This document shows, one piece after another, positions 34,305 through 52,312 of a DNA stretch of 62,400 bases. The notes below the pieces were generated by a model. It was not told the DNA's origin. It was given only the letters and a program-made list of their open reading frames with translations, and ran no database searches. The translations under genes were made by a program, and so were the position numbers. The DNA lies in the IMG/VR virus record IMGVR_UViG_3300030430_003380, positions 1 through 62,400 of that record, one strand, 5' to 3'. Source of the DNA: a virus. Taxonomy: Duplodnaviria; Caudoviricetes. Position 1 is the stretch's first letter; each line of letters opens with the position of its first letter.

Positions 34305-36164
34305 TTATTTAGACTTGCGAATTGCTTGCAAAATATCTGTCATTGTGAATGGAGTACCTGGAGAAAAATCTTTACCACCGTCCATTTTTTTAGTATATGG
34401 GATTGTTAAAACACCATTACTACTAAGACTTGGGGTTCTTACACCAATATTATTATATGATTTCCAAAAAACTTTTCTAACACCACTCTTACGAAGTTGA
34501 TCATAATTATCCTCAGTTAAACTGTTTTCAAAAGGATAAGATTTACCACCTATTTCTATATTACCATCAGTAGATGGAGGTTTAAGACCTAAATACGCAT
34601 CAACCTCAAAATCACTTTTAGGAACTTCTTGTACTGAAGTAGTTGATCCTCCTGGTTTATTCTTATTAAAGTTTGAAGCGTTATTTTCTTTAGGAGGGTT
34701 TTGTTTCTTTTGTAACTTATAATACTCAAACTGTTGTAAATGTACTGATGGTTTAGCATTTCCAACAACTTTGAATGGAGCTGAACTCATATTATCAAAA
34801 CTAACTAAAACAGTGTTATTAGTTCCAGGTAACTTATATTCACCAACAAAATCCCCATTTGCAAGTTGCATTGTCTTTACAAGTTGAGCATTTTCAAATA
34901 ATGCGTCTTCTCCTACTTTACTTGCTGATACTTCTAAAAGTTGTTCAAAAGTTATAGATTCTCCGTTTGGATCTGTAAATTCTTGTTGTTTATTATTTGG
35001 TCCAACATAAATATCTTTAGATGATATATCAAGTTTACTATCAAAATCTTTTAACTCAACAGGTATATCTGTCCCTTCAGCAGCAACAAATCCATTATAA
35101 GAGTTACTACCTGGCTTTGGATTATTGTATTTACCTACAAACTCTGGAGTTAGGATGCTGCTAGATTTATCATCATCATCTTTGTCAACCTTCTTATAAC
35201 TCTGTTTTATAACCTCTTCTTTTCTCAAGTCTTTTGTTAAATCTTTTGCCAACCATTTAGCGTACTGATCTGCAAGATCTGCATTGTAAGAATCGCTTTT
35301 AGGGTCCAATACTTCAGGGCTATCAATACCCTTAGTATTTTCTTCTTCAAAAAATCTAGTTTGATTTGATTGATCCATATAGTCAACTATCCAAGTAGAC
35401 TTAGCAACCTCACCAGTAGGTAAGTAAAGCTCGTTTGGGTTTAACTGCTCATAGATCTCATTTTCTATCTGATCTAATCTTTGATCTGTATAAAAACCAG
35501 TAGTTGTTTGAATATTATTAGCTATAGAAATTCTCTGGTCTCTAGTCTCTAAAAGACCACCCTTGCCTTTTTGCTTTTCTATATACATAGTACTACCTCT
35601 CTTAGGCTCTGGAGTACCTTTCATCGTAGGTAAATCTACAGGAAGGTTAGGGTTTATTTCACCATTCTTCAAACCTTCAAGAAACAATTTCTCATGAAAA
35701 TCAATTAAATAAGTACCCTCTTTAGACTTTTTATAGAGGTTAATATTAGTACCCTCTGTTCTCATGTCGTTAACAGTAGCATTGTAGTTTGTTGTTCTAT
35801 CTTTTAAAAAAGTTACATCCTGAAGTATTTGATCTTCTCTTCTTCTATACTCAGCTAAAGACTCATCTTTTATATTACCATTTTCATCCATGTTTTCGGT
35901 AATCCATTCATGATGACCTTTAATCTTACCAGCTATATAAGGTTGATAGTTAACATGAATCTCACCTTTATCAAAATACTCATCATAAAGGTTTTCTCTA
36001 TTCTCTCTTCTACGTTTAGCTCTAAGTTCTTCGTTTCGCTTTTGCTCTTCTTTGAACCTAGCAACATCTTGTAGGTGAGTTTGAATATCTCTAGATTCCT
36101 GTACTAAGTCCCTATTATTAAGATTACCTGCATCACCAATTCCAAATAGTCCTTCGTAAGCCAT
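34305..36164 (-). CDS. Putative internal virion/ejection protein
   Basis: Position between muzzle and giant protein; charged helical N-terminus. Confidence 0.6.
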   Translation of the reverse strand: MAYEGLFGIGDAGNLNNRDLVQESRDIQTHLQDVARFKEEQKRNEELRAKRRRENRENLYDEYFDKGEIHVNYQPYIAGKIKGHHEWITENMDENGNIKDESLAEYRRREDQILQDVTFLKDRTTNYNATVNDMRTEGTNINLYKKSKEGTYLIDFHEKLFLEGLKNGEINPNLPVDLPTMKGTPEPKRGSTMYIEKQKGKGGLLETRDQRISIANNIQTTTGFYTDQRLDQIENEIYEQLNPNELYLPTGEVAKSTWIVDYMDQSNQTRFFEEENTKGIDSPEVLDPKSDSYNADLADQYAKWLAKDLTKDLRKEEVIKQSYKKVDKDDDDKSSSILTPEFVGKYNNPKPGSNSYNGFVAAEGTDIPVELKDFDSKLDISSKDIYVGPNNKQQEFTDPNGESITFEQLLEVSASKVGEDALFENAQLVKTMQLANGDFVGEYKLPGTNNTVLVSFDNMSSAPFKVVGNAKPSVHLQQFEYYKLQKKQNPPKENNASNFNKNKPGGSTTSVQEVPKSDFEVDAYLGLKPPSTDGNIEIGGKSYPFENSLTEDNYDQLRKSGVRKVFWKSYNNIGVRTPSLSSNGVLTIPYTKKMDGGKDFSPGTPFTMTDILQAIRKSK

Positions 36165-36167
36165 TTC

Positions 36168-37187
36168 TTAATAGTTAAATTTTAATCTGTTTTTTATTTT
36201 AGATAAGTAGCTACCACCATGCTCCATCATTGTAGGTTCTTCTTCCTTCATAGGTTGTTCTTGTCTCATAGAATCTTCTTTCTTCATAGGAGCTTCAGTC
36301 TCTTTAGCTGATATAACATTGCTATCATACTTTTCAAAAAGTTGTTTTAGTAAAGACATAAGAGCTTTACCATCACCTTTCTCCATAAGCATCTCTATTT
36401 GAGCTCTGTCATCTGGTGGCATTATAATTTCTTGACCTGTCATCTCACCAATCTTTTCACCATCTTGAACTATGTCAATAGGGTTAGTATCGTGGCTAAA
36501 CTCATCAGGAGTTGTACCACCTTCTTCAGCTTCCAATTTAGCACCTTTCTTACCCATAAAAGCCTCTTGTATATCCTCACCAAACAACCCTTCAGAAGCA
36601 CCTGTTTGTATACCACCCAATACACCACTCATAATACCTTCAGTACCCTGAGTTCCTTGCTTAACAGCAGACTCTAATTCTTTTTGCAATCCTGCAGCTT
36701 CAGTTGTAGCCAACGCAACATCTTTTTCTTCAGCCTTTTCTTCTGCTGTCGCTAAGTTTTTCAAAGCTGCAGTTTTAGCAGTTTGCTGTACGTCAAGTAA
36801 ATCTAACCTATCTTTAGCGGCTTGCCTTTCCATACCCATAGCTACAGGTAGGGCATTTCTAGGATCTCTAGATAAGTTTGCCATCGCTGTAGCAAAGTTA
36901 GCTGCTCTAGCATCTTCTAATCCCTCTATATAATCTTGATCAACAGGCTCATCAACCATTTCTCTAAAAGTTGATGGTACCTCGTAAGTTAAACGACCAC
37001 TAGCTTTAAGGTCGTCAATAGCACTTCGTGCATCTCTTTCTCTGTCCTTACCTCTTTTTCTGTCAAATATTCCTTTAATACCTTGACCTATAAAAGGCAA
37101 GGCTTTTATTCCTAAAGCTGCAAGTTCTGCTCCAGTCAAAGCTTTTTTTACTTTTTTATTCTTATTATATTTAGGATAGTATGCCAT
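36168..37187 (-). CDS. Putative internal virion/ejection (pilot-like) protein
   Basis: Gly/Ala-rich hydrophobic ends flanking a coiled coil; FSH..NP...GEMTGQE motif. Confidence 0.65.
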   Translation of the reverse strand: MAYYPKYNKNKKVKKALTGAELAALGIKALPFIGQGIKGIFDRKRGKDRERDARSAIDDLKASGRLTYEVPSTFREMVDEPVDQDYIEGLEDARAANFATAMANLSRDPRNALPVAMGMERQAAKDRLDLLDVQQTAKTAALKNLATAEEKAEEKDVALATTEAAGLQKELESAVKQGTQGTEGIMSGVLGGIQTGASEGLFGEDIQEAFMGKKGAKLEAEEGGTTPDEFSHDTNPIDIVQDGEKIGEMTGQEIIMPPDDRAQIEMLMEKGDGKALMSLLKQLFEKYDSNVISAKETEAPMKKEDSMRQEQPMKEEEPTMMEHGGSYLSKIKNRLKFNY

Positions 37188-37201
37188 TTTTTAGATTTTT
37201 A

Positions 37202-37209
37202 CAAATGTA
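37202..37209 (-). promoter_or_regulatory. -7 promoter element TACATTTG
   Basis: Exact consensus upstream of 37187. Confidence 0.65.
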
Positions 37210-37223
37210 CTAATTTTTTTTCA

Positions 37224-40200
37224 TTATTTATTACTGAGCTCACTCTTGTCTACATCTACGTTTGCAGCGTATAAGTTAAACTTATATTTAGATTGATACC
37301 AGTGAGATGTAAGTATTGTTTTAAGGTAGTGACCCTTAAGTTTTTCACCATCTATAAGCCCTTCTTTAACTATAAAGTAAAACTTACGACCTTGGAGACT
37401 ACTGTAGTTAACCGTAGAAATAAAGTCAACACTATTCTCTGATATGTTATAAACCCAACCCGAATGAGTGGTCTCTCCAGTTTTAGTATCCATACAATGT
37501 AAAGAATATTCACATGGGTAAACAGATGCATTTGACTTAGATGATGTTCCGTTTTTAGCTACAAAAATACCACTAGGTGGATTTACTTTTTGAACCCTTA
37601 ATTTAGTTATACTAAATTCAGGTTGATTAATAGTTGTTTTTATATATAAATAAGGATCAAGATTAATATCACCAGATGTTATTTCAATAGAAAAATTTCT
37701 ATTAGTATTTCTAGAATTAATTGTAATAGTTTCAAACCCTGTATTTTTAGATGGCAAACCCAAACTTCCACTTAAATTAGTTTCACCACCAAGTCTGAAA
37801 GATAAATTAATATTACCTCTTTGTATTCTTTCTGTTTTAACATGAAAAGAAATTATATAAGTAGATCCAGAACTAAAATTTAAAGAAGAAGTTGTTCTTA
37901 CCTGAGAAAAAGCGTTTTGTTTACTAAAATGTAAAACGTTACCACTGCTATTTTTATTTTCTTGAACTTTAACTCCTGCATTTAAAACAGTCCAATCAGA
38001 GGCGTTTGAAAAGCTTCCTTTATTGGAAAGAATATCATCACCAACTGTATTTTTGCTTTTAATATTAAAAACTTCTTCAAACTTAAAATCTCTTTTTACA
38101 TTATAAATACCATATATACCTCCAGGTATTATATTAGAAACAGACACAACCTTATTACCAATAAAAGGAAATTTGTTTATTTCAAAACGACCATTAAGAG
38201 AAAAACTACCACCAGAATACCTCCTTGCATTAAAAATACCCAATCCAAAAATATTAGAAGCATCTCCATTAAAGTCACCTTGAAGCTCACCATATCCCTG
38301 TATATTAAATTTACTTGCAGCAAAAGGAATTTGAGAATATTGAATACCTTCTTTTGTTTTATAATCAATAACATCAATTCTATTATTTTTTGATATATGA
38401 TTAACAGTATTATCTAAAGTTATTTTTTGTTTTGTTAAAATATTTTTAACTACATTGTATTGAGCTGAATCATTTTCGCTATTATAAAACCTAATTAAAT
38501 CTCCTGGAGCTAAATCTTTGTAAAAGTTAGATGAAGATGTACCATAAAGACAATAAGGTGAGTTTGCCTGTGTAGATATAAGACCATCAACTTTTTTATA
38601 ACCTATTTGAGTAGATATAACAGAGTCATAAGAGTTATTATGCTGACCCATGTTTGTAGACATATTAGTTAAAAGTTTTGTGTCACTCTCTAAAGATATA
38701 GCATTATAAGTTTTTACAGACGAAGTATCTGAGTTAAAAGGAAACTCTATATTTGAGTTATATCTAATACCATAAAAAGTATTAAAGTTAGATCTATTTT
38801 CTGTATTGTGTTTATATATTTTACCATTTTTATATGTAACAAATTGTCTATTTATTTTACCGTAAAATTCTGGTTTGTAACTATAAAAAGATGTCCATTT
38901 TTTTAGGGTATCATTAAAAGATATGGTTTTAGAAGGATCGTAACCTTCAATAAATACATTTTCAATTAAAGAGTAGGACTCATCAAAATTAACATTACTA
39001 GATCCCCAAAAGCCAGAATTTTCGTAACCTTCAGTTTTTAAAACCCTTGGTAGCGTGATTATATATTCATCATACTTAGGGTCATACCCAGCAACAATTT
39101 TAATATTTTCAACTTTTTCCTCTACATACTTTTGACTTTTATCTCTAAAATAATCGGACATTCCATAGTCAGATATTCTTGTTATACCATCTCTACTAAG
39201 TCTTAGAACAGAACCTCTCTTTATATCTACAAAATAAAATCTATCGTTATTCTCAACTATACTCTCAGGATTAAGGCTACATCCATTTTCTGCAGAATAC
39301 ACCTGAGCATAGTCAGCTAGTATATCTTTAGACAGAGTTAGGTTAGAAGCACCATCAGCATAATTAACTATATTCTTGCCAACCAAAGTTCTACCTACTC
39401 TATTCTCGTGAAATATTAAAAGATCATCACCCTTAATCATTAAAGATTGTATTGACCCAAAGTCTTGATTATAGTCGTAATATGGAGATATTGCCATGTC
39501 AAAAGTACTAAAACCATTAAAATTACCTGTGCTGGTAAAAACATCAGAGTAATATACTGAGGCTGACAGCCTTCTTTCCTCAGAGTAAGGGTTTACTATA
39601 TTAACCCTACCCTTATCCCAGTTGTTAGAATTATAAAAGTCTGTTAGGTAATAGCTCTCGCAAGCAAAAACTTGAGGTGCAATACCTGTAGTATCAGCTT
39701 CACCTTCACTATTAACAGCAGCATCTTGATGATGAAGAGTCATAACCCTTCTTCTAGTGTAAACATCACCATGAAGTAAAGTTCCCTCTGCAAAGTTTGT
39801 AGTGCTGTTTCCACTATCATCAATAGGTCCCTGTAAACCATCTATAGCTGTAACCTCCATTCTAGACTCCTCGTCAAAAAAGTAATCAGAACCTTGACCC
39901 TGATGGGATCTAAAATCAGTTCCTGGATTCTCTATCTCAAATTTTTCACCTACCTCATAAAACAAACCAGAAACTTCTGATTGTATAGATTTTTTAGGTC
40001 TATATATCTCTACTATAAGCTTGTGATAACCATTATGAGAAAAATCATCGTCAGTATGATCAACTTGAGAGTGATCAACAGCTATACTCCCATCAATATT
40101 TCCATCATTTGATATAGAAAAATCTATATCGTTATTAGCATCTGTAGGGCTATCTATAACAATGTAAAATCCTGGAATAAGGTTAGATCCTCCAACAGCA

Positions 40201-43200
40201 TCCTGAATCTCTTCTCTAGTGTAAAAATCATAAGATGATATAGGGACATCTATATTCTCTTTAAAATACCTCCTATTGTCTTCATTACCACCACCAAAAG
40301 ATATATATCTAACTCTATCTCCTTTTGCGTAAACATAATCTATTATAGCTGACGTAGAGTCTATATAACTATCCACATCAACACTTTCTTCACTCAATCC
40401 TTTTAATGATCCTAACCCTAAGTATATTTTATTATCTTGATTACCAGTTCCTTTATACGAGTTTAATATAGGGATTTGTATAAACTCATCTATAGTAGTG
40501 TTACCAGAGTAAACCCATTGATAATGAGTTGCCCATACTGGAGGCTTGTGATATATCTTCCACTCAAGACCATTAAATGTACTTTGAGGCTGAGCAATCT
40601 CAGTATAAAAAGGTGCGTAAACGTTTGTGCCTGAATTAAAAGTGTTTATAGCTTTTGATGTATTAACAAAAGAAGCCCTATTTGTCTCGTCATAGTACAC
40701 TAAACCAAAACCATGATTAGCTCCAGTCTTATAAGACTTACCAAAAGAAGGTGCACCACTATAAGTAGATCTTGAAGAAGTAAGCCCACCATGAAACATA
40801 TTTGTAGTACCACCTGAGCTAGTTCCCTTACCTGCGAAATTTAGATTAGCAGTAGTACCTATAGCAGTTTCAGAATAATTAGTATCATTTGTTATTATAT
40901 CAATTCCTACAGAATCAGGTAGTGGGTCATAATTTTCTGGATAAGTAAAAGTTATAGACAATTTTTTAGTAGACGAATTGTAAGACGCTACTGTTAAATC
41001 ATGCACAGGTAGGGTTTGAACATCATTATATATAGCTGATCCTCCATCTATAAAGTAACCAAAACTAGTATCTAAAAAAAAGTCTCCAACGTTAATTCTC
41101 TCTTCAAGGTGCAAACCTATGTCGTCAACACTACCAGGATTAAATATAGACGATTCATGCGTAAAATTACCACCCCTTGGAATAATACTTGATTGACCAG
41201 GAGCTTGTCCATGATTTTGAAATAAAGTTTTAACCCAATTATATCTTAAATTTATAATACCATCACCACCGTTTGTTTCTGGGTCTAAAGGTTGTAGATT
41301 AAAGCTAACTTTAAAAACAGTGCTAATAACTGGACCACCTGCATTTATCACTTCAAAATCAGGAGCATTAGTATAATTCCCATTTTGACCACCTCCACTA
41401 ATTTTATTTATAAACTGAGTCTCAGCATCTAAAGTAGTTACAGGCTTTATCTGCAGATTGCAGTATATATCTGTATTATCATATCCATCAACAACGTTAC
41501 CATACGCTATTCTATTTTTAGGCAATATGGTTTGAGCTTTTGCTAGTTTAGGTAAAGCATCTTGAAGCTTGTCAATATCTGTTTTAGATACAAAAGGGTA
41601 GACACCATCATTCCTAAATATTGCAGTTGAAAACTTAACATTAGCCTGAATAGCTCCACCAAAAAATAAACTAGGGCTAGTTAAAAGAGATTCGTTCTTT
41701 CTTCTTTTTAAATACTTTATAAAGTCATTAGGTATAGTTTCTATAAGAAAAAACTCACCATCATTACCATCCCTAGCTACAACCTCTACCTTATCTACAT
41801 AAGATATGCTATCGTTATATTTTATGTTTATAATGTTATTTACAGCATTATTAATAGTAGTGTTGTCTTCACCAGTAATATATCTCTTGGTGTAAACACT
41901 TTGATTAGCTACATCTGATATACCACTGTAAGCCGATACAGTACCATCTTTATAAACATATCTATATCTAAACTGAAAAAACTTACCAACTATATGATTT
42001 ACCCTAGCTGGCTCTTTATTAAAAGAAAACTCTGGTTTATACCTTGGTTGATGAGATAAAGCGTCAAGATATATCATCTTATCTTCAAACTCTCCAAAAC
42101 TAATTAGAGGAGAGTAGGCATCATCAGGCTGTGCATGTAGTACCTTACCCCCAGGAGATGTTGGTTCTAAATCAATAAAAGGAGTATTAGTTATAATACC
42201 ATTATTAGTTTTTAAATCAGCGTTAAACGATGATAAATCAAAATTAGTCGTACTTATACTAAAGTTAGACCACTTAGTAGTAGCCTCAAAAGTATGTGTA
42301 TTAACTATAAAATCAACTTCAATAAAGTATGGATTACCGTTAACTACAACGCAAACAAAATCACCAGCAAATAAATCTTTAGTAGGATTTTCACCCTGCA
42401 TTGAAACAGTTTTGTCGTTAAAAGTTAGAGTAACAGAAGTTGTTCCTTTTCCAAAGGGTTTAATAATATCAACAGCCTTAGCGTAACCATTATATCCTTT
42501 ACCTAATAAAGCTGGAGATAGAATCTCAAACTGTTGAAGGTATAAATGATCGTTTTTCTTAAAAGGATGATTGTTAGTTACACCAATTAATACAGTCCTT
42601 TCTTCTTTTATTTCTTTTAACGATATATTACTTATAGTTATATCAATGCCATGCTTATTTCTTTTAATTACAAAATAAGTGTTTTTAGAATAATATTTAG
42701 TTTTGTGGGTACCAACAGTTGTTTTTATAGCAATTTGTTCAGCTTCATCGTCAGCAGTATAAGTAGCTAATCCATTATCTTTATTACTACTGTCTATATC
42801 ATAAGAAAGCTCGTAATATTTTCCAGGAGTTACTACACCTGCCTTTAATATGTTTATATCTGTCGACCCTGAAGCTTCTGTAATAAATCTAAAACTTCCA
42901 GTGTCAGAAGAAATTACATTAGAGGTTTCACCGTTTATAGTGTTATCACCATCAACAAATCTAATTTGCCAATTATTATTTGAAATAATTTCACGACCTA
43001 AAATGAAATCATTTAATATTCCTTGAAACGTAGGACCAAGTTTTATATACTGCTCGTTTCTTTTAGCCTTTTCTACATCAATTTTTCTAGGTCTATTAAA
43101 ATTATCTGTAAAGTAAAGTATGTCTTCAACTTTATTAATACCAGTTATTAAATGATCTTTATCAAAGTTTAAAACACCTTCAGTGACCCCATTACTACCT

Positions 43201-43430
43201 GTTTTACCATCTTGATAAACTACAGTAGTTTTATCCTCAATCTGATTATATTCTACAATACAATCATATTTACCAGCTACACCAACATTATCTTCGGAAT
43301 ATAAAAAATAGTATATACAATTTGTAGGTTTATCTTCATAAGAGCCTATACAAATATATTCTCCTGGTAAAGTTTTAGTAGAAAAACTTTTATATGTATT
43401 TGAGTTTTTATTTTTTACTATTAAAGACAT
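37224..43430 (-). CDS. Tail nozzle/muzzle (stabilisation) protein, main part
   Basis: CIG..ED, LNF...LITGIN...LYFTD..NRPRKI, FRYRY.Y.DG, AKAQT...NRI.YGN, G.VYYD...R, GCSLNPES, YFVD.KRG.V.RLS.DG, GYDPKYDEY, WTSFYSY.PE. Confidence 0.82.
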   Translation of the reverse strand: MSLIVKNKNSNTYKSFSTKTLPGEYICIGSYEDKPTNCIYYFLYSEDNVGVAGKYDCIVEYNQIEDKTTVVYQDGKTGSNGVTEGVLNFDKDHLITGINKVEDILYFTDNFNRPRKIDVEKAKRNEQYIKLGPTFQGILNDFILGREIISNNNWQIRFVDGDNTINGETSNVISSDTGSFRFITEASGSTDINILKAGVVTPGKYYELSYDIDSSNKDNGLATYTADDEAEQIAIKTTVGTHKTKYYSKNTYFVIKRNKHGIDITISNISLKEIKEERTVLIGVTNNHPFKKNDHLYLQQFEILSPALLGKGYNGYAKAVDIIKPFGKGTTSVTLTFNDKTVSMQGENPTKDLFAGDFVCVVVNGNPYFIEVDFIVNTHTFEATTKWSNFSISTTNFDLSSFNADLKTNNGIITNTPFIDLEPTSPGGKVLHAQPDDAYSPLISFGEFEDKMIYLDALSHQPRYKPEFSFNKEPARVNHIVGKFFQFRYRYVYKDGTVSAYSGISDVANQSVYTKRYITGEDNTTINNAVNNIINIKYNDSISYVDKVEVVARDGNDGEFFLIETIPNDFIKYLKRRKNESLLTSPSLFFGGAIQANVKFSTAIFRNDGVYPFVSKTDIDKLQDALPKLAKAQTILPKNRIAYGNVVDGYDNTDIYCNLQIKPVTTLDAETQFINKISGGGQNGNYTNAPDFEVINAGGPVISTVFKVSFNLQPLDPETNGGDGIINLRYNWVKTLFQNHGQAPGQSSIIPRGGNFTHESSIFNPGSVDDIGLHLEERINVGDFFLDTSFGYFIDGGSAIYNDVQTLPVHDLTVASYNSSTKKLSITFTYPENYDPLPDSVGIDIITNDTNYSETAIGTTANLNFAGKGTSSGGTTNMFHGGLTSSRSTYSGAPSFGKSYKTGANHGFGLVYYDETNRASFVNTSKAINTFNSGTNVYAPFYTEIAQPQSTFNGLEWKIYHKPPVWATHYQWVYSGNTTIDEFIQIPILNSYKGTGNQDNKIYLGLGSLKGLSEESVDVDSYIDSTSAIIDYVYAKGDRVRYISFGGGNEDNRRYFKENIDVPISSYDFYTREEIQDAVGGSNLIPGFYIVIDSPTDANNDIDFSISNDGNIDGSIAVDHSQVDHTDDDFSHNGYHKLIVEIYRPKKSIQSEVSGLFYEVGEKFEIENPGTDFRSHQGQGSDYFFDEESRMEVTAIDGLQGPIDDSGNSTTNFAEGTLLHGDVYTRRRVMTLHHQDAAVNSEGEADTTGIAPQVFACESYYLTDFYNSNNWDKGRVNIVNPYSEERRLSASVYYSDVFTSTGNFNGFSTFDMAISPYYDYNQDFGSIQSLMIKGDDLLIFHENRVGRTLVGKNIVNYADGASNLTLSKDILADYAQVYSAENGCSLNPESIVENNDRFYFVDIKRGSVLRLSRDGITRISDYGMSDYFRDKSQKYVEEKVENIKIVAGYDPKYDEYIITLPRVLKTEGYENSGFWGSSNVNFDESYSLIENVFIEGYDPSKTISFNDTLKKWTSFYSYKPEFYGKINRQFVTYKNGKIYKHNTENRSNFNTFYGIRYNSNIEFPFNSDTSSVKTYNAISLESDTKLLTNMSTNMGQHNNSYDSVISTQIGYKKVDGLISTQANSPYCLYGTSSSNFYKDLAPGDLIRFYNSENDSAQYNVVKNILTKQKITLDNTVNHISKNNRIDVIDYKTKEGIQYSQIPFAASKFNIQGYGELQGDFNGDASNIFGLGIFNARRYSGGSFSLNGRFEINKFPFIGNKVVSVSNIIPGGIYGIYNVKRDFKFEEVFNIKSKNTVGDDILSNKGSFSNASDWTVLNAGVKVQENKNSSGNVLHFSKQNAFSQVRTTSSLNFSSGSTYIISFHVKTERIQRGNINLSFRLGGETNLSGSLGLPSKNTGFETITINSRNTNRNFSIEITSGDINLDPYLYIKTTINQPEFSITKLRVQKVNPPSGIFVAKNGTSSKSNASVYPCEYSLHCMDTKTGETTHSGWVYNISENSVDFISTVNYSSLQGRKFYFIVKEGLIDGEKLKGHYLKTILTSHWYQSKYKFNLYAANVDVDKSELSNK

Positions 43431-43440
43431 AAAATATTAA

Positions 43441-46400
43441 TTAAAAACCAGTTATTGTAGTATATCTTGATGCGCTTGCAAAAAGAGTATGATCATCAAA
43501 ATTTGAAGCTATTATATTTCCCAACTGAGGTTCGTAAAGCCCACTAAATTGAATATCTTCTGTTGCAGGAACGTTGTCATACTGAAATTGATCAAAATAA
43601 AAGATCATTTGAATATCCCTATGTTGAAACAAATCATTTTGATTAGTTATAAATGAGTTCCATGGTGATTGAGATATATCTATACCACTAACTGCAGATA
43701 AAAAGGGAACTCCATCACCAATAGTTGATGTTTCTTCATTAAAATTAGCAAATAAACAAATTAATTTTTGAGTTGGGTATCCCAATCCAGATGGTATAAA
43801 ATCAATTGTTTGCCCATTTTGAAATCTATTTGTCAAATAATAAACTATATTATTAGTTTCACTATGTGGCTGATTTGCTAAAGCTTGACACTCGCTACCT
43901 GTAAGAATTACCAAAGTAGCAACCTCTGTTCGAGAACCGTCAATCATATATTGAATACTAAGTCTATAATCATTATTGAAATAAGCACTAAAAGATAAAG
44001 GACTACCACTTATACCACTCGTATCGGTTCCTACAAAAGTAAGCAATGTAGCCGCAACATTAGGACCTGTAAGAAAAGTTCCAGAATTATCTTGAAGATA
44101 AATTATTTGATTTTGTAAACTTATAACATTTAGCTGTGATTGTTCTAAATCAAGTTGAATTTGAGCTATCTCTTGAGCATGTTGTTCTTGTAAAGATACA
44201 AGATCTTCAGGGTTTGCTTGTGAGGCTTGAAAATAATTAACATACGCACTGTAAACTTGATTCTGAACAGCATTAGAAAAATCAAGTACGGCATCTGCAT
44301 AAGATTGAAGCCTATCTCCTATAGTTGAAACACTACCAGTACCATCAAAATATCCAGGAATAACTTTATTAAGAATATCGTTATAAACAGATTCTGACAC
44401 AAATTCACTAAGAGTGTCAAGTCCAGAGTTTTGCCAATCTAAAACAATATTATTAACCCCATTATATCTTTCAAGATAAAGTTCTTCAGCCTCTGGAACT
44501 AGATTGTTTAAATTAAAATCTATTGCTTCCTGAGCATCATTACTTAATCTAATTTGAGTCAACTTAATTTGAAAATCATTAACCTGTTGGCTGCTTACTG
44601 GTGGTGTAATTATAGTTATATTAGCCCACTTGTTTAAAAAATTTGATTCGTTGGTATCAACAACAGTAAATGTATGCTCAAAAACAGTATTACCTGTAGT
44701 ATTTAAACTTTGACTTATTTCAAATCCATAATTAATGTTACCATCCCATTGGTCAGAATCATCCCACAGATTAGTTATAAAAACATTATAGTTATTTGGT
44801 ATACTACTTGCCCCAGGACCAGTGCCTACGTCAGAACAATTAAACATCATCGTAATTGAAATTTCATTACCATTTTGCCAAGCTCCTTGATTAGTAAAAG
44901 ATGAATAAGGAAGTCTTACAGCACTATAAAGATTAGAACTTAAAGGAAGTATTAAGCCACCATTAGTTTCAGATCCAGAAGGGTTAACAATATTCCCTGA
45001 AGCATCAAAGGTAGATAAAATACTAAGGTCATTAGCATCACTAAAAAGACCCTCATATAAAATAAAATCACCTTGAAATAAACTTACGTTATTCATTCCT
45101 GGTTGATAAATTACTTGATTTTCAAGAGATAAAGCATTATATACTGTAAGAGTTTGAGAATAAGAATCACTTAAAGATGTGTATATATCATTATATTCAT
45201 TAAGTTTAGATACAATTATAGCGTCAGATATTCTTAGCTCTTCAAGTTGTGTTTGTAAATCATCAATTTGATTATTTAAGTCTTGAATAGTGGACCCAAG
45301 ACTAACTATTGTAGCACCTTGAGTAGCAATCTGTGCAGATTGATCAGATATAGTAGATTCTAAAGCTGCTACTGCAGCAACATGATCTGCAGTGAGAGCA
45401 GCTAAATCTGCATCAAACTGTGCTTGCAAAGCATCTTGTGCAGCTTGATCAGCAGTTTCTGCAGCAGCTAAAGCGTTAGCATGATTTATGTTTAATTGAT
45501 CAATTTCTGCTTGATAACCCGCTACTACGTCAGCTGTCTGTTGACTTAAAGTGTTTATTACATTAGATATAATGTCTTCAACAGATGTTATTATATTGAT
45601 AAAGTCAGTTGCTAAAGGTAAACCTGCAGCTTGTAAATGTTCTTCAAAAGATTGATTAAAATTATCTATAAAAGATGATTGGCTAGTCTGGAATTGATTA
45701 AACTGACTAATTAAAAGTATAACGTCTGCAGCTAAAGCATCAAAAGGTAAAGATCCCTGTACTGTTGGAACTATATCAGTGCTTAAATTTGTAACAGCAA
45801 TATTTAATTCCCCTAAACCAATATTCAAATTTTCTATGTCTTCAAACAACTCCGTATTTTCATCTGAAAGAATATCGTTAGCTTGGTTAAGATTGTTAAT
45901 ATTCCCCTCTAACCCAAGTATAATCTGGTTAGCATCATCTAAATCAGATTGAGTCTGACCTAAATTAGCAAGTGCTTGATCTGTTAATGCTATTTGAGCT
46001 TGAAGATCTGCTTCTAAAATACCATTATTAACGGTTTGTTGAATAGAAAATTGTTGTAAATCATTAAAATTATCAATTGCATTTTGTAAATCTTCTTGTA
46101 AAACATTATAGCTATTAACTATAGAATTTGTAATTTCAATAGAATTGTCAACTATTTGATAATTATTAAGAGTGATAAAAGTTCCATTACCAAAAATTGT
46201 AGCAGCATCTGTTTCTCCATCTGTAAATTCATTACCAGGCTGTAAGGCTACCATTAAATTTTCTGAGCTATCTAATAACGCTAGCTTAAATCTAACACCA
46301 ACAGGACCAACAACTACAATACTAAAAGAATTATTATTGCTATCAAAAGTTGCATTTTCAGAAAAAGTTAAAAAGAATTTGTCAGGATCTATATTAAAAT

Positions 46401-47457
46401 TTAAAGGTAGCCCGTCACATAAAACACTTTTACTTTCAGAAAATTGCCTATGTAAAAATGCAGATAATTTATTTTGATTTGAGTCAAACTCAAACTCTCC
46501 CTCAAACTCTCCACCAGATGAAAATGTGCCTTGATTTATTGTTAAAAAAGGTTCAAACTCAAATTCAAAAGTTTCATCTGCTGGATTCATGTTTTCCCTA
46601 TAAGAAAAAATAGCTACTTCATCAAAACTTGTAGGTGATGTAGGCTCCTCTCCAATAAATGTAATTCTCCAGACAGTTCTATTACCAACCTCATAAAGGG
46701 TTCCATCAGGACTTACAACAACACCATCATCATTAGTATCTGTATTAAAAATACCTCCAGAATCAAAACCTGGCAACAAGAATGCAGATAAGTTTTCGCT
46801 AACGCTTATAGGTATTCCAACTCCTTGTTCACCATAAGTGTATATTAAATTATCTGAATCAACATTAGATGAAATAGATAAATCAAAGTTAACACCAGCA
46901 ACATCACATTCAATTACAATATCAAAATAACCACCATGTAACACAGAATTTTGACCAAAAGATAAAAGTTTTACACTTGCAGTAAACTGATTACCAGTAT
47001 TAATGTCATAAACATTAATACCACTATTAAAAGGACCAACGCTACTAAATTGAGAGTTTAAATAAAAAGATGTAAAGGTATGACCAGTGTTTCCATTCCA
47101 ATTAAATTCTCCAATAAGAACATTACCATTAGGTCCAACTGAAAATAAAGAAAAGTTATACGCTTGATTAGTTTGTTCCCAACCCTGTATTCTTATAACT
47201 TTTTGATAAAACACAGTTGCAGGATTTATTTCCTCATATAAACCGTTGTCGTTAACAAAAAAAGTTTCTGGATCTGTAGAATAAAAATCAAAAGGAACCT
47301 CAACGTTTCCTTCTATATTTTCTAAAGAACCAATAGTTCCATCAACAGATGTTGCAGCTCTAACATTTAAAGCGTCTATGTAATCAGGGTTTTTGATAAG
47401 ACGAACATCTCCGTCTTTATTCATTCCACCCATAAAACTTCTTTTTTCTAAAGGCAT
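43441..47457 (-). CDS. Acidic coiled-coil virion protein bearing the muzzle-type N-terminal segment
   Basis: F.GGMNKD.D.RL....Y.DALN.R...G.LENI.GN in first 51 aa; long heptad region. Confidence 0.75.
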   Translation of the reverse strand: MPLEKRSFMGGMNKDGDVRLIKNPDYIDALNVRAATSVDGTIGSLENIEGNVEVPFDFYSTDPETFFVNDNGLYEEINPATVFYQKVIRIQGWEQTNQAYNFSLFSVGPNGNVLIGEFNWNGNTGHTFTSFYLNSQFSSVGPFNSGINVYDINTGNQFTASVKLLSFGQNSVLHGGYFDIVIECDVAGVNFDLSISSNVDSDNLIYTYGEQGVGIPISVSENLSAFLLPGFDSGGIFNTDTNDDGVVVSPDGTLYEVGNRTVWRITFIGEEPTSPTSFDEVAIFSYRENMNPADETFEFEFEPFLTINQGTFSSGGEFEGEFEFDSNQNKLSAFLHRQFSESKSVLCDGLPLNFNIDPDKFFLTFSENATFDSNNNSFSIVVVGPVGVRFKLALLDSSENLMVALQPGNEFTDGETDAATIFGNGTFITLNNYQIVDNSIEITNSIVNSYNVLQEDLQNAIDNFNDLQQFSIQQTVNNGILEADLQAQIALTDQALANLGQTQSDLDDANQIILGLEGNINNLNQANDILSDENTELFEDIENLNIGLGELNIAVTNLSTDIVPTVQGSLPFDALAADVILLISQFNQFQTSQSSFIDNFNQSFEEHLQAAGLPLATDFINIITSVEDIISNVINTLSQQTADVVAGYQAEIDQLNINHANALAAAETADQAAQDALQAQFDADLAALTADHVAAVAALESTISDQSAQIATQGATIVSLGSTIQDLNNQIDDLQTQLEELRISDAIIVSKLNEYNDIYTSLSDSYSQTLTVYNALSLENQVIYQPGMNNVSLFQGDFILYEGLFSDANDLSILSTFDASGNIVNPSGSETNGGLILPLSSNLYSAVRLPYSSFTNQGAWQNGNEISITMMFNCSDVGTGPGASSIPNNYNVFITNLWDDSDQWDGNINYGFEISQSLNTTGNTVFEHTFTVVDTNESNFLNKWANITIITPPVSSQQVNDFQIKLTQIRLSNDAQEAIDFNLNNLVPEAEELYLERYNGVNNIVLDWQNSGLDTLSEFVSESVYNDILNKVIPGYFDGTGSVSTIGDRLQSYADAVLDFSNAVQNQVYSAYVNYFQASQANPEDLVSLQEQHAQEIAQIQLDLEQSQLNVISLQNQIIYLQDNSGTFLTGPNVAATLLTFVGTDTSGISGSPLSFSAYFNNDYRLSIQYMIDGSRTEVATLVILTGSECQALANQPHSETNNIVYYLTNRFQNGQTIDFIPSGLGYPTQKLICLFANFNEETSTIGDGVPFLSAVSGIDISQSPWNSFITNQNDLFQHRDIQMIFYFDQFQYDNVPATEDIQFSGLYEPQLGNIIASNFDDHTLFASASRYTTITGF

Positions 47458-47461
47458 TTAT

Positions 47462-48697
47462 TTACATTTTTGGAGATTGCTTGAAAGCTTTTCTAGAAAT
47501 TTGCATAGCAGCCTCTTTATTAAAGTTCATCATTCTAGCTCTAGCCAATCTTTTTTCGTTAAAATAAGATCTCTTAGCCATCTGCTTTTCGTTAGCAGGA
47601 ATACCACGTTTTCTTTGAATATATTTATAGTACATATAAGACCTTAAAGCTTCTTCGCAAAACTTATGTATTTTAGGTACATCACCCGCAGAACCCAACT
47701 GAATTAAAGATTGTTGTAATACACAAAAAGTTTGAGGATTGGTAGGAACAAATACATTTGCATCAAAAGTGCCATCAGGATCTAATAAATCTTTTGGTGC
47801 AGATAATAAATTGCTTATTACTATTGTTACAATACCACCCTCATTAGAAGCAGTTATATTAGTATCATTAGGTGCAACATGATACCTTGGATGACCCTCA
47901 TTTATTACTCTAGTCACAGCCTCAGCAATTTCTTCTGATGAAGTGTTGTCACCTTTATTTATAGATACAGGTACAAATATTTCTAAAGAACTTGGGTTTG
48001 AAGTTAAATCTTCAAAAGGATTTTCAGTGCTGTCTTTAAATATATATGTAATTGAACCACCATTTCTACTAGGTATTTTAAACACAGAACCGTTTTTAAT
48101 CATGTAAGTATAATTTTCAAGACCCGCATTAGCTCCTCCTTTTATAGATGGAGCCATTGAAAATTTTATTATATGGTCTTTTCCAGGTGTAGCAGTAACA
48201 CCATCAGATATATATTCCATAAACACTGTTTTACCAGCAACGTCTGAAGAAAAATTTATAGTTCCATCTTGTCTATTAACTCTGTAATAACCTAAAGTAT
48301 TTTGACCACCACCTATACCATATTTTCTACCAACCTCTGTATGATAATAAGGATTGTTTTCATCATAAGGGTCATCATTAATAACTGATTGAATAGTAGC
48401 ATCTAAAGATAAATTAGACTTATAACCTAAGGGATGAAACTCATCGTCATCACCTCTAAAACCAATCCTAAGTTCTTTTACATAATCAGCAGGTAAAGCA
48501 CACTGAAGTGTTGTAGAGTCTACAAGCATTGTATCCGTTTTAACTTTTTGTTCAACGTCAAATGTAAGCTCTCTAAGTCCTTGTAACGCTAGTAATCTTA
48601 ATTGATATATTTGTGCTTCTTTATCATAAGAGGTGTCATCAATCATTAACTGAACATCGTTAACAACCTCTTCTATAGTTGTGTAATCTATTGCCAT
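47462..48697 (-). CDS. Tail ring/tube protein with internal insertion
   Basis: GLRELTFD...LPADYV...G.I.FSS...EYISDG...HKFCEEAL..Y...R.A..R. Confidence 0.7.
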   Translation of the reverse strand: MAIDYTTIEEVVNDVQLMIDDTSYDKEAQIYQLRLLALQGLRELTFDVEQKVKTDTMLVDSTTLQCALPADYVKELRIGFRGDDDEFHPLGYKSNLSLDATIQSVINDDPYDENNPYYHTEVGRKYGIGGGQNTLGYYRVNRQDGTINFSSDVAGKTVFMEYISDGVTATPGKDHIIKFSMAPSIKGGANAGLENYTYMIKNGSVFKIPSRNGGSITYIFKDSTENPFEDLTSNPSSLEIFVPVSINKGDNTSSEEIAEAVTRVINEGHPRYHVAPNDTNITASNEGGIVTIVISNLLSAPKDLLDPDGTFDANVFVPTNPQTFCVLQQSLIQLGSAGDVPKIHKFCEEALRSYMYYKYIQRKRGIPANEKQMAKRSYFNEKRLARARMMNFNKEAAMQISRKAFKQSPKM

Positions 48698-49470
48698 TAT
48701 TTTGTAGTTTTAGATTTAGCAGGAACTCTAGCATTTTGAAGCATCTCTTTGGTAGACGCATAATTAATTAAAGAAATTTCTCTTAAGTTAACGCCAAGAT
48801 ATTCTAGTATCTTAATAACAATTTCCCCATGAGTTCTACTAGGTAAATTAAATTGACTAGAAGTAGAAGGATCATGCACTGGTTTTCCTGCAACAGTAAC
48901 ATATGACCAGTTTGGGGATCTCTTAGGATACATGTATGCATGAACAATTACATTTTCTATATTGTCTGGAAAAATTTTAATTTTTAATTGTGTAGAATTA
49001 ACATCACCACTCATAAGACCTACAGGAAAATCTACAGAAGGTTTTACTAAACTACTTCTAAGAATTTTATTTATATTTTCAGAGCTTACTAACTCTAAAG
49101 GTATATGAGAATTTATTCCTAAATTTTCATCTGGTAATATAAAAATTTCTTTAACAAGAAGTGTCTCGCTATCAACTATAACTTCTGCTTCTGAATAACC
49201 AGATGTAATTGGAACTAATTTTGTTTTATATTGTGTTGTAATTAAAAAAGGTGCTAAATCTTGTTCCGCTATTTCAGGAGTTAAAGATTCTTCCATAACA
49301 CCTGATATTTTTTTAGCTTGGGATTTTTCTTGAAGTATTTCTATTCTTTTATTAATTAACTCTAGCTCTGCCTGTTTTGCTAAAAGATTAAAGTCAGAAG
49401 GTGTTATAAAACCTCTTTGTTCTTTATTTGCAAAGGTTTGAACTAATCTATATATTTCATCAATACTCAT
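48697..49470 (-). CDS. Head-tail adaptor/ring protein
   Basis: ANKEQRGFITPSDFNLLA.QA...PNW.Y...IL.YLG. Confidence 0.7.
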   Translation of the reverse strand: MSIDEIYRLVQTFANKEQRGFITPSDFNLLAKQAELELINKRIEILQEKSQAKKISGVMEESLTPEIAEQDLAPFLITTQYKTKLVPITSGYSEAEVIVDSETLLVKEIFILPDENLGINSHIPLELVSSENINKILRSSLVKPSVDFPVGLMSGDVNSTQLKIKIFPDNIENVIVHAYMYPKRSPNWSYVTVAGKPVHDPSTSSQFNLPSRTHGEIVIKILEYLGVNLREISLINYASTKEMLQNARVPAKSKTTK

Positions 49471-50905: not shown

Positions 50906-52312
50906 TTATGATTTTTTGAACAATAAGAAACGGTTAGGAGCAAATCCTTCAAAACCTCTCTCAGATCGGTAGTTACACTGTAACGTATCTGTTTGATTAG
51001 TTTTGTTTTGTAGGACAGCAGAACCAGTTAACCAGTGCTCCATCTCACGAGAGTATCCACCAGCAGCTTTGTAACGTAAACGTAAAGCAGGAATCTTTTC
51101 TCCTGAACGAGGATCACGTTGTGAATCCATAGGAATACACATTCCGTAACCATTGTAGTTAAATCCATCAGCACCTAATAAAGATGGGTGATTAAATAGG
51201 TCGTATGTTTTCTTGTGGAAAGTGTAACCACCACGAGAGAACGAGTTAAAACCTAAGTTCAACGCCATATCTTTGTTATTTGCGAAAGTACCATAATTAG
51301 CACCACCTGCAGCATAAGCTCCCTGTGCAGCTAATAGGTCATCAATATCTAAAGACAAGTTAATACCAGCGTAAAGAGCCATCTCTTTTGCACCTCTAAA
51401 TTTATCTAAAGATTTTACTGCAGCATCAAAGTCAGCCATTGTAATTGCAGAAGAACCAAGATCCATAGATTGACCTTTGTTTTCCATAAATGGTAAAAGA
51501 CCTTCAGTTAAGTAAACTCGACTTCCTCCAGTATCACCAGTATCTACTGTATTGGCATCACCAGCTTGACCTAATACACATGCTAATTCACAGTAATCCA
51601 TGAATCTATTGTAAGTGTCAGCCTCACCTTTTAAGTACCATAGGTATCCAGAACCTGATTTAGGAGAATCAACTTTTAAGTAAGTAATATTAGTTGCTTC
51701 AGTACCTGTAACTTCAAATGTTTCTTTAATAATTTGACAGTTGTTTTGGTAGTGGTGTACACGAGGTGTTAAACCATCAGGTTGTCCAGTACCTTCAGCA
51801 TAAGCATTACCAATAATAACAAACTCAGAAGAAGCTATAAGAGCTGTTTCAGCAGCACCTACTAACTGAACTTTCCAAGTTAAAGCAGATCCTGATTGTA
51901 CTAAATAAATATTACCACCAGCATTTTGAATTAAGTCACCAACTCTTAAAGCGTGGTGACCTGCAGCAGTATCATCATCAGCACTTACACTTAAAGTACC
52001 TTGATTACCACTTTCAGCAGCAATAGAACCTGTAAAATTATTGTGATAAAAGTCTTCTTCGTAGTGTTCAAAAAGATGACTTGATGTTTCTTTCTTGTCT
52101 CCAAGTAATTCTAAAAGACCAGTAATACCTTGATCACCGTATCTTTTAATCATTTGTTCGTCAACATCACGCTTATGTATTCCTTGAGCTGCTGTAGTAG
52201 TTCCCCCATCCATTCGAGAAACTAAATCAACAGAACTTACATAGTTAAATGATGTTGCAACTTTTACTGCTGAAGGTGTTAACTTCGCAGCCGCATTTGA
52301 AACTGTTGCCAT
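50906..52312 (-). CDS. Major capsid protein
   Basis: N..QIIKE...VTGT...GYLWY.K.E.DT..RF.D..E, TEGL, Y.SERG; position after portal/scaffold. Confidence 0.9.
   Translation of the reverse strand: MATVSNAAAKLTPSAVKVATSFNYVSSVDLVSRMDGGTTTAAQGIHKRDVDEQMIKRYGDQGITGLLELLGDKKETSSHLFEHYEEDFYHNNFTGSIAAESGNQGTLSVSADDDTAAGHHALRVGDLIQNAGGNIYLVQSGSALTWKVQLVGAAETALIASSEFVIIGNAYAEGTGQPDGLTPRVHHYQNNCQIIKETFEVTGTEATNITYLKVDSPKSGSGYLWYLKGEADTYNRFMDYCELACVLGQAGDANTVDTGDTGGSRVYLTEGLLPFMENKGQSMDLGSSAITMADFDAAVKSLDKFRGAKEMALYAGINLSLDIDDLLAAQGAYAAGGANYGTFANNKDMALNLGFNSFSRGGYTFHKKTYDLFNHPSLLGADGFNYNGYGMCIPMDSQRDPRSGEKIPALRLRYKAAGGYSREMEHWLTGSAVLQNKTNQTDTLQCNYRSERGFEGFAPNRFLLFKKS

Follow-up and report, generated by a model that had tools for sequence, protein, structure and literature searches.

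The window analysed here is the whole 62,400-nucleotide stretch of a metagenome-assembled virus record (99% complete), and represents an uncultured marine podovirus whose crass-type muzzle (tail-tip nozzle) gene is split in two. Its host probably belongs to Flavobacteriia, because its TerL is similar to those of phages of Flavobacteriia. On the minus strand, the ORF list of the window places P0001 (1338 aa, 43441-47457) directly ahead of P0002 (2068 aa, 37224-43430). The junction reads ...GGT TTT TAA, a spacer of 10 nt (ttaatatttt) and ATG; the ATG of P0002 lies in the +1 frame relative to P0001 and is preceded, two codons upstream, by an in-frame TAA. The two ORFs, the TAA plus 10 nt between them and the stop in the downstream frame are as a sequence-only reading of this DNA had described them, and so is the N-terminal motif of P0001. 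The same reading had P0002 starting almost directly at CIG; the motifs CIG, IYYF, IVEY, LNF and ITGIN are all present, but 26 residues precede CIG. No internal repeats were detected by BLAST within or between P0001 and P0002. The features of the locus, in the direction of transcription, are as follows.

47293..47457, minus strand: N-terminal segment, the proposed docking strands (P0001 residues 1-55)
47212..47292, minus strand: linker after the N-terminal segment and start site of the insertion (P0001 residues 56-82, pLDDT <50); classical homologues continue straight into CIG
46135..47211, minus strand: conserved beta-rich base of the appendage (P0001 residues 83-441; AF2 model m9b9e88dd52ef, block pLDDT mostly 70-89)
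45133..46134, minus strand: long, very acidic helical/coiled-coil stalk (P0001 residues 442-775; helix from residue 442, 48 D+E versus 2 K+R)
44527..45132, minus strand: beta-sandwich resembling a carbohydrate-binding module, CBM (P0001 residues 776-977; AF2 model m326dee0c1688, residues 12-213)
44086..44511, minus strand: helical region (P0001 residues 983-1124; helices at model residues 219-360)
43444..44058, minus strand: C-terminal beta-rich domain of unassigned fold (P0001 residues 1134-1338; low-confidence model)
43431..43443, minus strand: fission junction, comprising the P0001 TAA stop (43441-43443) and the 10-nt spacer
43353..43430, minus strand: what is left of the linker between insertion and blade 1 of the fused forms (P0002 residues 1-26, MSLIVKNK...); aligns with ..AKRFV(R/K)NKIL.. 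just before CIG in fused ORFs
43026..43352, minus strand: first conserved block of the muzzle body (P0002 residues 27-135); aligns to residues ~72-165 of unsplit homologues, rich in invariant positions in alignment A4
38826..39593, minus strand: C-terminal part of the muzzle core (P0002 residues 1280-1535)
38646..38789, minus strand: incomplete match to the C-terminal domain of the muzzle, with which the N-terminal segment is proposed to pair (P0002 residues 1548-1595)
37227..38483, minus strand: lineage-specific C-terminal extension (P0002 residues 1650-2068), the last ~50 residues being conserved in alignment A4

The Crassvirus muzzle is a tail-tip hexamer with a ring-joining domain, a seven-bladed propeller, IG1, IG2 and a crass domain. 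P0001 and P0002 resemble the crAss001 muzzle gp44 (PDB 7QOK, 7QOL and 8CKB; Pfam PF25731 and PF25729) in that they match the two ends of one Pfam model. Residues 6-60 of P0001 match positions 5-60 of the 1224 in PF25731 (crAss_MUZ; E 2e-9, 36.6 bits, cut-off 27), a match that goes unreported when the entire 1338-aa protein is scanned, and a profile of the N-terminal segment (A3) matches residues 5-58 of gp44 (7qok_A, E 1.3e-4). Residues ~1280-1535 of P0002 match positions 1012-1223 of the same model (E 8.8e-16, 57.7 bits), and this C-terminal core also matches PHROG 14478 (E 3.2e-77). P0001 opens with the N-terminal segment of the muzzle family, which P0002 lacks. Further downstream, its residues 1548-1595 align with positions 2-59 of the 83 in PF25729 (crAss_MUZ_C) at 18.0 and 20.7 bits, below the cut-off of 27; a fused relative, L054, reaches 29.1 bits. 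By analogy with the description of crAss001, the first conserved block of the body may correspond to propeller blades 1-2.

Within the structural module the gene stands where it does in crAss001, downstream of the genes for portal, capsid and small structural proteins and upstream of giant genes for putative cargo. The gene order of the window recurs in MW202828.1 and, among 22 syntenic loci of split or fused type, in 21, the remaining one (L068) having no flanking DNA. Unlike gp44, a single chain of 1371 aa, the window spreads the fold over two genes, carries ~1280 extra residues on the N-terminal segment, and adds lineage-specific insertions and a C-terminal extension of ~420 aa to P0002. 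Whole-protein searches with P0001 or P0002 do not recover gp44. No PDB match was found for the entire P0002, no Pfam or PHROG family for its residues 1650-2068, and only chance PDB matches (E>0.2) for the entire P0001. A viral-contig scan found no relative of P0001, and tblastn of P0001 against 50,697 phage records returned only the N-terminus of MW202828.1.

Alignment to unsplit homologues bears out the sequence-only reading that the N-terminal and CIG motifs are contiguous in one polypeptide: they are so in MW202828.1 (1551 aa) and in Tenacibaculum phage Gundel_1 (1386 aa), which P0001 and P0002 match end to end. Segments of this kind are common, with 3999 cluster representatives matching at E<=0.001. 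All 12 columns invariant over 28 split, fused and classical segments are retained in the window, and the segment is the best-conserved part of P0001, with a mean identity of 87% among 25 orthologues and of 33-41% in the distal parts. Along with its single copy in the genome and its predicted lack of structure when modelled by itself, this conservation speaks for a segment that needs a partner.

The split is conserved among related loci. Among 79 metagenome loci, 21 have the two-ORF split, 17 are fused, 7 are classical and 1 is split elsewhere; the rest comprise one ORF1 with its stop on a too-short contig, one ORF of 455 aa and 31 loci cut too early to classify. All 26 protein clusters with the N-terminal segment in the length range of P0001 are full-length P0001 orthologues. 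The muzzle is not a single polypeptide here, the two ORFs lying in different frames in a layout kept in 21 loci. The junction, for which the sequence-only reading had proposed verification in reads, was confirmed at the level of assembled contigs. One contig of 10,290 nt, taken from a different study, crosses it with one substitution and no indel, and contigs from runs X1 and X2 cross it without indel; contigs from X3 and X4 were not counted, since they fail to bridge the junction by 31 letters on each side. Because the window is a metagenome-assembled record compared only with assembled contigs, an assembly error or a recent inactivating mutation giving a pseudogene was considered. To this explanation we assign next to no probability, given the independent contig, the recurrence of the layout in 21 loci of many samples, whose orthologues share as little as 30% identity, the intact ORFs of these orthologues (1247-1665 aa and 1727-2068 aa) and the strong constraint on the N-terminal segment.

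Production of P0001 and P0002 as one protein by recoding, that is by bypass, frameshift, readthrough or RNA splicing, was also weighed. The fused relatives described below show that a single chain is viable, and both the window and L008 have TTT as the final sense codon ahead of the TAA and again just before the ATG, like a take-off and landing pair. Ribosomal bypass was nevertheless rejected, because the TTT pair is not conserved among the other orthologues, being absent from L004, L005, L006, L009, L010 and others. Reassignment of TAA was rejected because the downstream ATG stands in another frame. Spacers of orthologues measure 2-29 nt and fall in all three relative frames, several of them holding additional stops, and the +1 frame of the window has its own TAA past the frame-0 stop; readthrough or a simple frameshift is thereby excluded, in agreement with the sequence-only reading. 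The other ORFs of the genome, up to 3878 aa, are open under table 11. Rfam revealed no intron or ribozyme in 36000-49000 at E<=1, the sole hit being a snoRNA model that scored 26 bits, short of its gathering score of 60, and was put down to chance, and Pfam revealed no intein or endonuclease domain in P0001. The interruption itself is a conserved coding module of 1280 aa. Recoding is therefore regarded as extremely improbable, and a natural split of the muzzle gene, with the ~55 first residues on the appendage protein and the remainder in the next ORF, is strongly supported by homology and by the 21 loci.

The origin of the appendage is suggested by the fused relatives. In 17 syntenic loci, occupying the same gene neighbourhood as the split pairs, one ORF joins segment, insertion and body; the 11 complete ones measure 3181-3594 aa, and their linker ..AKRFVRNKILNKTT..CIG is continuous. 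The fused giants match P0001 residues ~70-349, so the beta-rich base is common to both forms, and P0001 residues 1134-1338 are not homologous to the region preceding the junction site in fused forms. From these single-ORF loci, the appendage can be read as a giant insertion that separates propeller blade 1 from the N-terminal segment. On sequence comparison it would therefore be a module inserted into the muzzle and afterwards severed from it rather than a foreign fibre that acquired a tag, a point missed by the sequence-only reading. One clade is cut after VKNKI, that of the window before IVKNK. Every one of 200 bootstrap trees requires 2 changes of the split state, and a single split clade is rejected by the AU test (p 3e-6, for a group defined after the tree was seen). 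Two independent events are thus indicated by the different cut residues of the two clades and the two changes on every tree; parsimony does not favour two fissions over two fusions.

The appendage is acidic, as had been noted (170 D+E versus 33 K+R, pI 4.05). Its description as a coiled coil holds for about residues 442-775 and 983-1124, but the remainder is beta-rich in the AF2 models, both of which are of middling confidence (pLDDT 64 and 62). The beta-rich base (residues 83-441) has a mean identity of 66%, and the stalk (residues 442-775) is the least conserved part of P0001, at 33%. The model of residues 1-460 had no Foldseek match at E<=0.001; its best VIA-align score against known folds was Z 6.8, with nozzle and T4 gp11-like chains included, which is below the level to trust. 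Residues 776-977 superimpose on the CBM4 structure 1gui_A with a VIA-align Z of 11.2 (rmsd 3.5 A over 143 residues), and the entire model m326dee0c1688 matches 66 chains at Z>=8, those listed including CBM22, CBM29 and phage tailspike and fibre domains; this CBM-like fold is a common beta-sandwich that carries no specificity information. For residues 1126-1338, the Atlas search gave no usable match.

Two known nozzles indicate where the N-terminal segment may sit. In the T7 nozzle gp12, as published, the 45-residue N-terminus gives three strands to a platform jelly-roll barrel formed with the C-terminal domain, and this barrel binds the adaptor (PMC6702177). The ring-joining domain of crAss001 is described as similar to that of T7 (PMC10172136). 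T7 gp12 thus serves as the template for the location of the segment; as described there, it is a single chain with no insertion after its N-terminal strands (PMC6702177). No sequence similarity between T7 gp12 and the window proteins was detected, and P0001 residues 76-229 show a weak structural echo of its residues 140-249 (Z 4.7). The sequence-only reading had proposed that the N-terminal strands complete the beta-propeller in trans. This is probably the wrong domain, as the likeness to T7 gp12 and crAss001 points to the platform barrel; by this analogy, the segment probably completes the ring-joining (platform) barrel and not the propeller.

A split nozzle has been published in 2026 for the Pseudomonas podophage A1002, consisting of the nozzle-rope gp39 and the nozzle-base gp42; according to that report, the two proteins rebuild a canonical nozzle by strand complementation of platform and propeller, and a partitioned ancestral nozzle is proposed (PMC13730344). 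In both systems a long fibre-bearing part carries the smaller of the two nozzle pieces, the two-chain fold of the window being suggested by homology. They differ in the piece concerned. In A1002, as there described, the rope protein ends in the C-terminal platform and two partial blades, whereas the appendage of the window begins with the N-terminal ~55 residues. The A1002 genes are gp39 and gp42, whereas those of the window are adjacent. Fused intermediates exist for the family of the window and none is reported for A1002, the two systems being compared here by their descriptions. Another natural split within the same muzzle family is found in Cellulophaga phage phi13:2 (KC821633). Its gp120 (1613 aa) runs from the N-terminal segment directly into the body and lacks the C-terminal domain, and the next gene, gp121 (241 aa), is crAss_MUZ_C (E 5.9e-20, 71.9 bits). 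Unlike in the window, the cut is at the other end of the body, there is no appendage, and the stop is followed by an in-frame ACC ATG. In the search listing, phi18:3, phi19:3 and phi46:3 carry the same two-CDS annotation under the match, with phi13:2 the one examined in detail. If the N-terminal segment pairs with the C-terminal domain, cultured phages of the phi13:2 type would already build the barrel from two chains.

Taken together, we consider it likely that the muzzle gene is split and that the N-terminal segment keeps its old place in the fold, anchoring an acidic, CBM-bearing appendage on the tail. A long in-frame insertion would have parted the ~55-residue segment from the body, ahead of its first conserved block; many relatives still encode segment, insertion and body in a single ORF, and in the clade of the window the gene would later have been cut just before blade 1. 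From such a cut it follows that the 1338-aa appendage protein opens with the muzzle's own N-terminal strands and that the 2068-aa body is without them. Judged by homology, the segment would bind in trans and retain its old place in the muzzle fold, which by comparison with T7 gp12 would be the ring-joining barrel formed with the C-terminal domain, where the muzzle joins the tail ring. There it would anchor the appendage, a CBM-like domain on a helical stalk that presumably binds host surface glycans. Six appendages per hexameric muzzle is a guess from crAss001.

Alternatively, the segment could be an ordinary fibre anchor on the tail ring or adaptor alone, with P0002 assembling and working without it and no completion of the fold in trans. 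The platform domain of T7 contacts the adaptor, so the segment could have retained that contact alone, and a conserved N-terminal anchor with a variable distal part is usual in tail fibres, a gradient that P0001 has. Such an anchor appears unlikely, since the segment is homologous to an integral part of the muzzle chain, is covalently joined to the body in fused relatives, retains all family-invariant residues and is present in a single copy in the entire 62.4-kb genome, leaving no second one to serve P0002. P0001 might also be an assembly factor or decoy rather than a virion appendage, its segment transiently filling the muzzle site, for example to time tail assembly. P0001 is known from genes alone, and the segment folded without a partner looks unstructured (AF2 pLDDT <50 for residues 1-81), which would suit this role. 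We regard it as very unlikely, because in fused relatives the module must be part of the virion if their muzzle serves at all, the module is built like an adhesin, with a stalk, a CBM-like domain and a variable distal end, and the gene lies inside the structural operon.

Beyond the preferred reading, in which the segment anchors the appendage at its old place in the muzzle, a more general proposal, for and against which we see an even balance, is that the junction between the N-terminal strands and blade 1 acts as a display port for in-frame insertions ranging from none to ~2,350 residues. On at least two occasions the insertion, together with the strands, would have become a separate protein that attaches to the tail again, filling in the platform barrel in trans. 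On this view the 55 residues would need nothing else for docking and would serve as a split-protein tag of natural origin, from which giant glycan-binding fibres hang where ring and muzzle meet. A separate C-terminal gene, like that of phi13:2, could likewise supply this barrel.

The split and the N-terminal segment would both escape automatic pipelines: scanned in full, the 1338-aa protein has no family match, and nothing seems to be missing from the start of the muzzle body. Residues 5-58 of gp44 in 7QOK offer a definite site for asking whether ~55 residues dock large cargo on a podovirus tail, and such a docking site could help the engineering of crass-like and Flavobacteriia phages. Moreover, within syntenic loci one conserved tail-tip fold takes a classical form, forms with a small or a giant insertion, and forms split on two occasions, and this series provides a clean case of phage receptor-binding hardware arising by insertion and then fission.

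The window is an entire virus record of 62,400 bases (completeness estimate 99%), in which the gene order is TerL, portal, SU10-like capsid protein, small structural proteins, P0001 (the appendage ORF), P0002 (the muzzle-body ORF), two further genes and a 3878-aa ORF:

55895-57988, TerL
53496-55898, portal
50906-52312, SU10-like capsid protein
43441..47457, minus strand, P0001, 1338-aa ORF upstream of P0002
37224..43430, minus strand, P0002, 2068-aa ORF downstream of P0001
22652-34288, minus strand, 3878-aa ORF downstream of the muzzle

The TerL shows 48% identity to the uncultured record MW202828.1 and 36-37% identity to Maribacter and Flavobacterium phage TerLs. The 3878-aa ORF, with a match to DUF3293 (30.5 bits) and weak ones to DUF3990 and ART-PolyVal at its residues 1711-1771, has the look of a polyvalent protein that is ejected or carried as cargo; MW202828.1 carries an 11.6-kb gene at the equivalent position. 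No family match was found for the two genes between P0002 and this ORF. Upstream of P0001 lie genes at 47462-48697 and 48697-49470. P0001 ends in GGT TTT TAA, followed by 10 bases (ttaatatttt) and the ATG of P0002, which is shifted to the +1 frame with respect to P0001; a TAA in this +1 frame stands two codons ahead of the ATG.

Both ORFs belong to one family of muzzle (tail-tip nozzle) proteins. In tblastn searches of the phage collection, P0001 residues 1-51 align right at the beginning of a CDS of 1551 aa in MW202828.1, and P0002 from residue 27 on aligns immediately after this match in the same CDS. The comparable CDS of Tenacibaculum phage Gundel_1 encodes 1386 aa. In a four-way alignment, the first ~55 columns are covered by P0001 and P0002 begins at about column 52. 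The N-terminal motif and those of the block opening with CIG, which the sequence-only reading had described as contiguous in one polypeptide, are indeed contiguous in the MW202828.1 and Gundel_1 CDSs. Its central claim, that the muzzle gene is split with the first ~50 residues on the appendage ORF, is borne out by PF25731 (Crassvirus muzzle protein), of which positions 5-60 of 1224 match P0001 residues 6-60 scanned alone (36.6 bits, cut-off 27) and positions 1012-1223 match P0002 residues ~1280-1535 (57.7 bits). A sub-threshold match to PF25729, the C-terminal domain family, follows in P0002. Moreover, a 28-row profile of the N-terminal segment matches residues 5-58 of the crAss001 muzzle gp44 (7qok_A, E 1.3e-4), and a six-frame profile search of the whole window genome found a single copy of the segment, in P0001.

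The split recurs in other genomes. When 5.8 billion proteins, limited to the P0001 length range, were searched with P0001 residues 1-60, all 26 clusters found were full-length P0001 orthologues (30-99.6% identity overall). A metagenome scan with the alignment of P0001 orthologues gave 79 loci, which were sorted by ORF calling and BLAST.

Layouts of the 79 loci, which include near-duplicates from different assemblies (e.g. L004/L005, L041/L042)
Two genes, both ORFs visible: 21
First ORF with stop, contig too short for the second (L024): 1
N-terminal segment, insertion and body as one ORF (fused): 17 (11 complete, 3181-3594 aa; 6 running off the contig)
N-terminal segment directly followed by body (classical): 7
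Split elsewhere (L082): 1
455-aa ORF on a low-coverage contig (L039): 1
Contig end reached before the layout was readable: 31

The TAA-ATG spacer is 4-29 nt long in the window's clade (16 loci), occurs in all three relative frames and often contains further stops, and is 2 nt long in a second split clade (5 loci). With spacers so variable in length and frame, there is no common signal for frameshift, readthrough or bypass, in agreement with the earlier view that neither readthrough nor a frameshift joins the ORFs. Ribosomal bypass via matched TTT codons was rejected, the pair being present in the window and L008 and absent elsewhere. No intron or ribozyme was found by an Rfam scan. The junction was also checked for assembly error: besides the 21 loci with both ORFs, a contig of 10,290 nt that comes from another study covers window positions 42900-44000, showing a single substitution and no indel. 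A further contig, matching at 100%, is from run X1, which may be the source sample. At L039 (1820-3187), a complete 455-aa ORF on a ~3x contig stops after the N-terminal segment and a portion of the base domain, through either a further truncation or misassembly.

The 17 fused ORFs share the gene neighbourhood of the window's genes, with orthologues of the 292-, 257- and 411-aa genes upstream, and at split and fused loci alike the 339-aa gene is found 9.6-10.8 kb downstream of the point where the ORF bearing the N-terminal segment starts. P0001 residues 70-349 resemble the first ~300 residues of the fused insertions. Given this resemblance and the shared synteny, the appendage is a module inserted after the N-terminal segment, ahead of the first conserved block of the muzzle body. 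Among 1.84 billion cluster representatives, a profile search identified 3999 proteins bearing the segment at E<=0.001, and in all 150 of the matches listed it spans residues 1 to roughly 70. With lengths below 1000 aa, 98 of the 150 were left unclassified, many likely being fragments; local body HMMs and Pfam served to sort the remaining 52. The body begins before residue 150 in 15 of the 52 (one rescued by Pfam), at residue 197-450 in 16, and at residue 1402-2427 in nine, whose lengths are 3108-4131 aa, while 12 carry the segment without a body. The 16 intermediate insertions (130-390 aa, same site; among P0071-P0162) are unrelated to the base domains of P0001, so different modules have entered at one and the same position, which makes the site between N-terminal segment and body an insertion hot spot.

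In the fused forms, the linker before CIG reads ..AKRFV(R/K)N(K/T)IL(N/K)KTT... In the second split clade, the first ORF ends in ..AKRFVKNKI plus stop and the second starts with MALESTT.., and in the window's clade the second ORF itself begins MSLIVKNK... Remnants of the linker thus stand on different sides of the cut in the two clades, placing the cuts some eight residues apart. In a quick body tree (27 rows, four classical forms as outgroup), the eight window-clade rows are sister to the rest and the other four split rows are nested among 11 fused rows; the ingroup grouping was the same in a more careful tree without outgroup (23 rows, 1694 columns). The split state required two changes in 200/200 bootstrap trees, and a single split clade, a group named after the tree had been seen, was rejected by the AU test (p 3e-6). 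By parsimony, two fissions cost the same as two fusions; fission is probably the direction, given that in-frame insertions come in graded sizes.

Across 25 orthologues, mean identity is 87% in P0001 residues 1-55, 79% in residues 56-82, 66% in residues 83-445 and 33-41% beyond 445. In the AF2 model of the N-terminal part (13-row alignment, mean pLDDT 64), residues 1-81 have pLDDT <50, beta-rich domains are predicted at residues 83-440, and a helix starts from 442. The model of residues 765-1338 (mean pLDDT 62) contains a predicted beta-sandwich at residues ~776-977, similar to CBM4, CBM22 and CBM29 modules and to phage tailspike/fibre domains; 1gui_A ranks first among its structural matches (Z 11.2, rmsd 3.5 A, 143 residues), with 5w6h_A at Z 10.0. 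Helices follow at residues 983-1124, then a poorly modelled C-terminal domain. Acidic residues outnumber basic ones in P0001 by 170 to 33 (pI 4.05). The first beta domain after the N-terminal segment (residues ~77-235, window 46753-47229) gave weak matches, all below trust level, to podovirus nozzle residues ~140-250 (T7 6r21_a, Z 4.7; P-SCSP1u 8i4m_A, Z 5.8; Kp7 7y22_Y, Z 5.2) and to T4 gp11 (Z 5.0). In addition, P0002 residues 104-274 (window 42609-43121) are 45-47% identical to a near-C-terminal region (about residues 1180-1410) of some P0001 orthologues (P0022, P0026, P0027 and P0028), pointing to a module common to body and appendage in related phages.

The N-terminal strands had been proposed to complete the beta-propeller. 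According to PMC6702177, the platform jelly-roll barrel of T7 is formed by the C-terminal domain and three strands of the 45-residue N-terminus, and binds the adaptor; the ring-joining domain and propeller of crAss001 are described as similar to those of T7 in PMC10172136. By this analogy, the N-terminal segment would more likely complete the ring-joining barrel than the propeller. In the cultured Cellulophaga phage phi13:2 (L083, KC821633; 3265-8835), gp120 (1613 aa), the muzzle homologue, has no C-terminal domain, and the next gene, gp121 (241 aa), matches crAss_MUZ_C (71.9 bits). The two genes share a frame and meet at TAA ACC ATG, so they would be fused if the stop were read through. The location of the C-terminal domain on a separate gene suggests that the same barrel may naturally be built from two chains. 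Two CDSs are annotated under the muzzle match in phi18:3, phi19:3 and phi46:3 too. L082 (8132-14107) is split in a third way: a 1313-aa ORF has the N-terminal segment and first body block, and beyond a TAA and further stops comes a second ORF, of 667 aa, which holds the last core block and crAss_MUZ_C (34.3 bits).

The nearest published parallel comes from Pseudomonas phage A1002 (PMC13730344, Nov 2026), in whose split nozzle a truncated base is complemented by a rope protein that bears the C-terminal platform plus two partial blades. The rope protein thus carries the C-terminal fragment, whereas P0001 carries the N-terminal one. A full-text search, with most subscription journals outside its coverage, found no published description of a muzzle gene cut after the N-terminal segment or of giant fused muzzle forms. 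In summary, the split muzzle is a real feature, split nozzles as such being already known from A1002. The N-terminal segment and the body, which are covalently linked in relatives, are encoded here by separate genes, and the segment is strongly constrained; by homology, it would still take its place in the muzzle fold, binding P0002 in trans.
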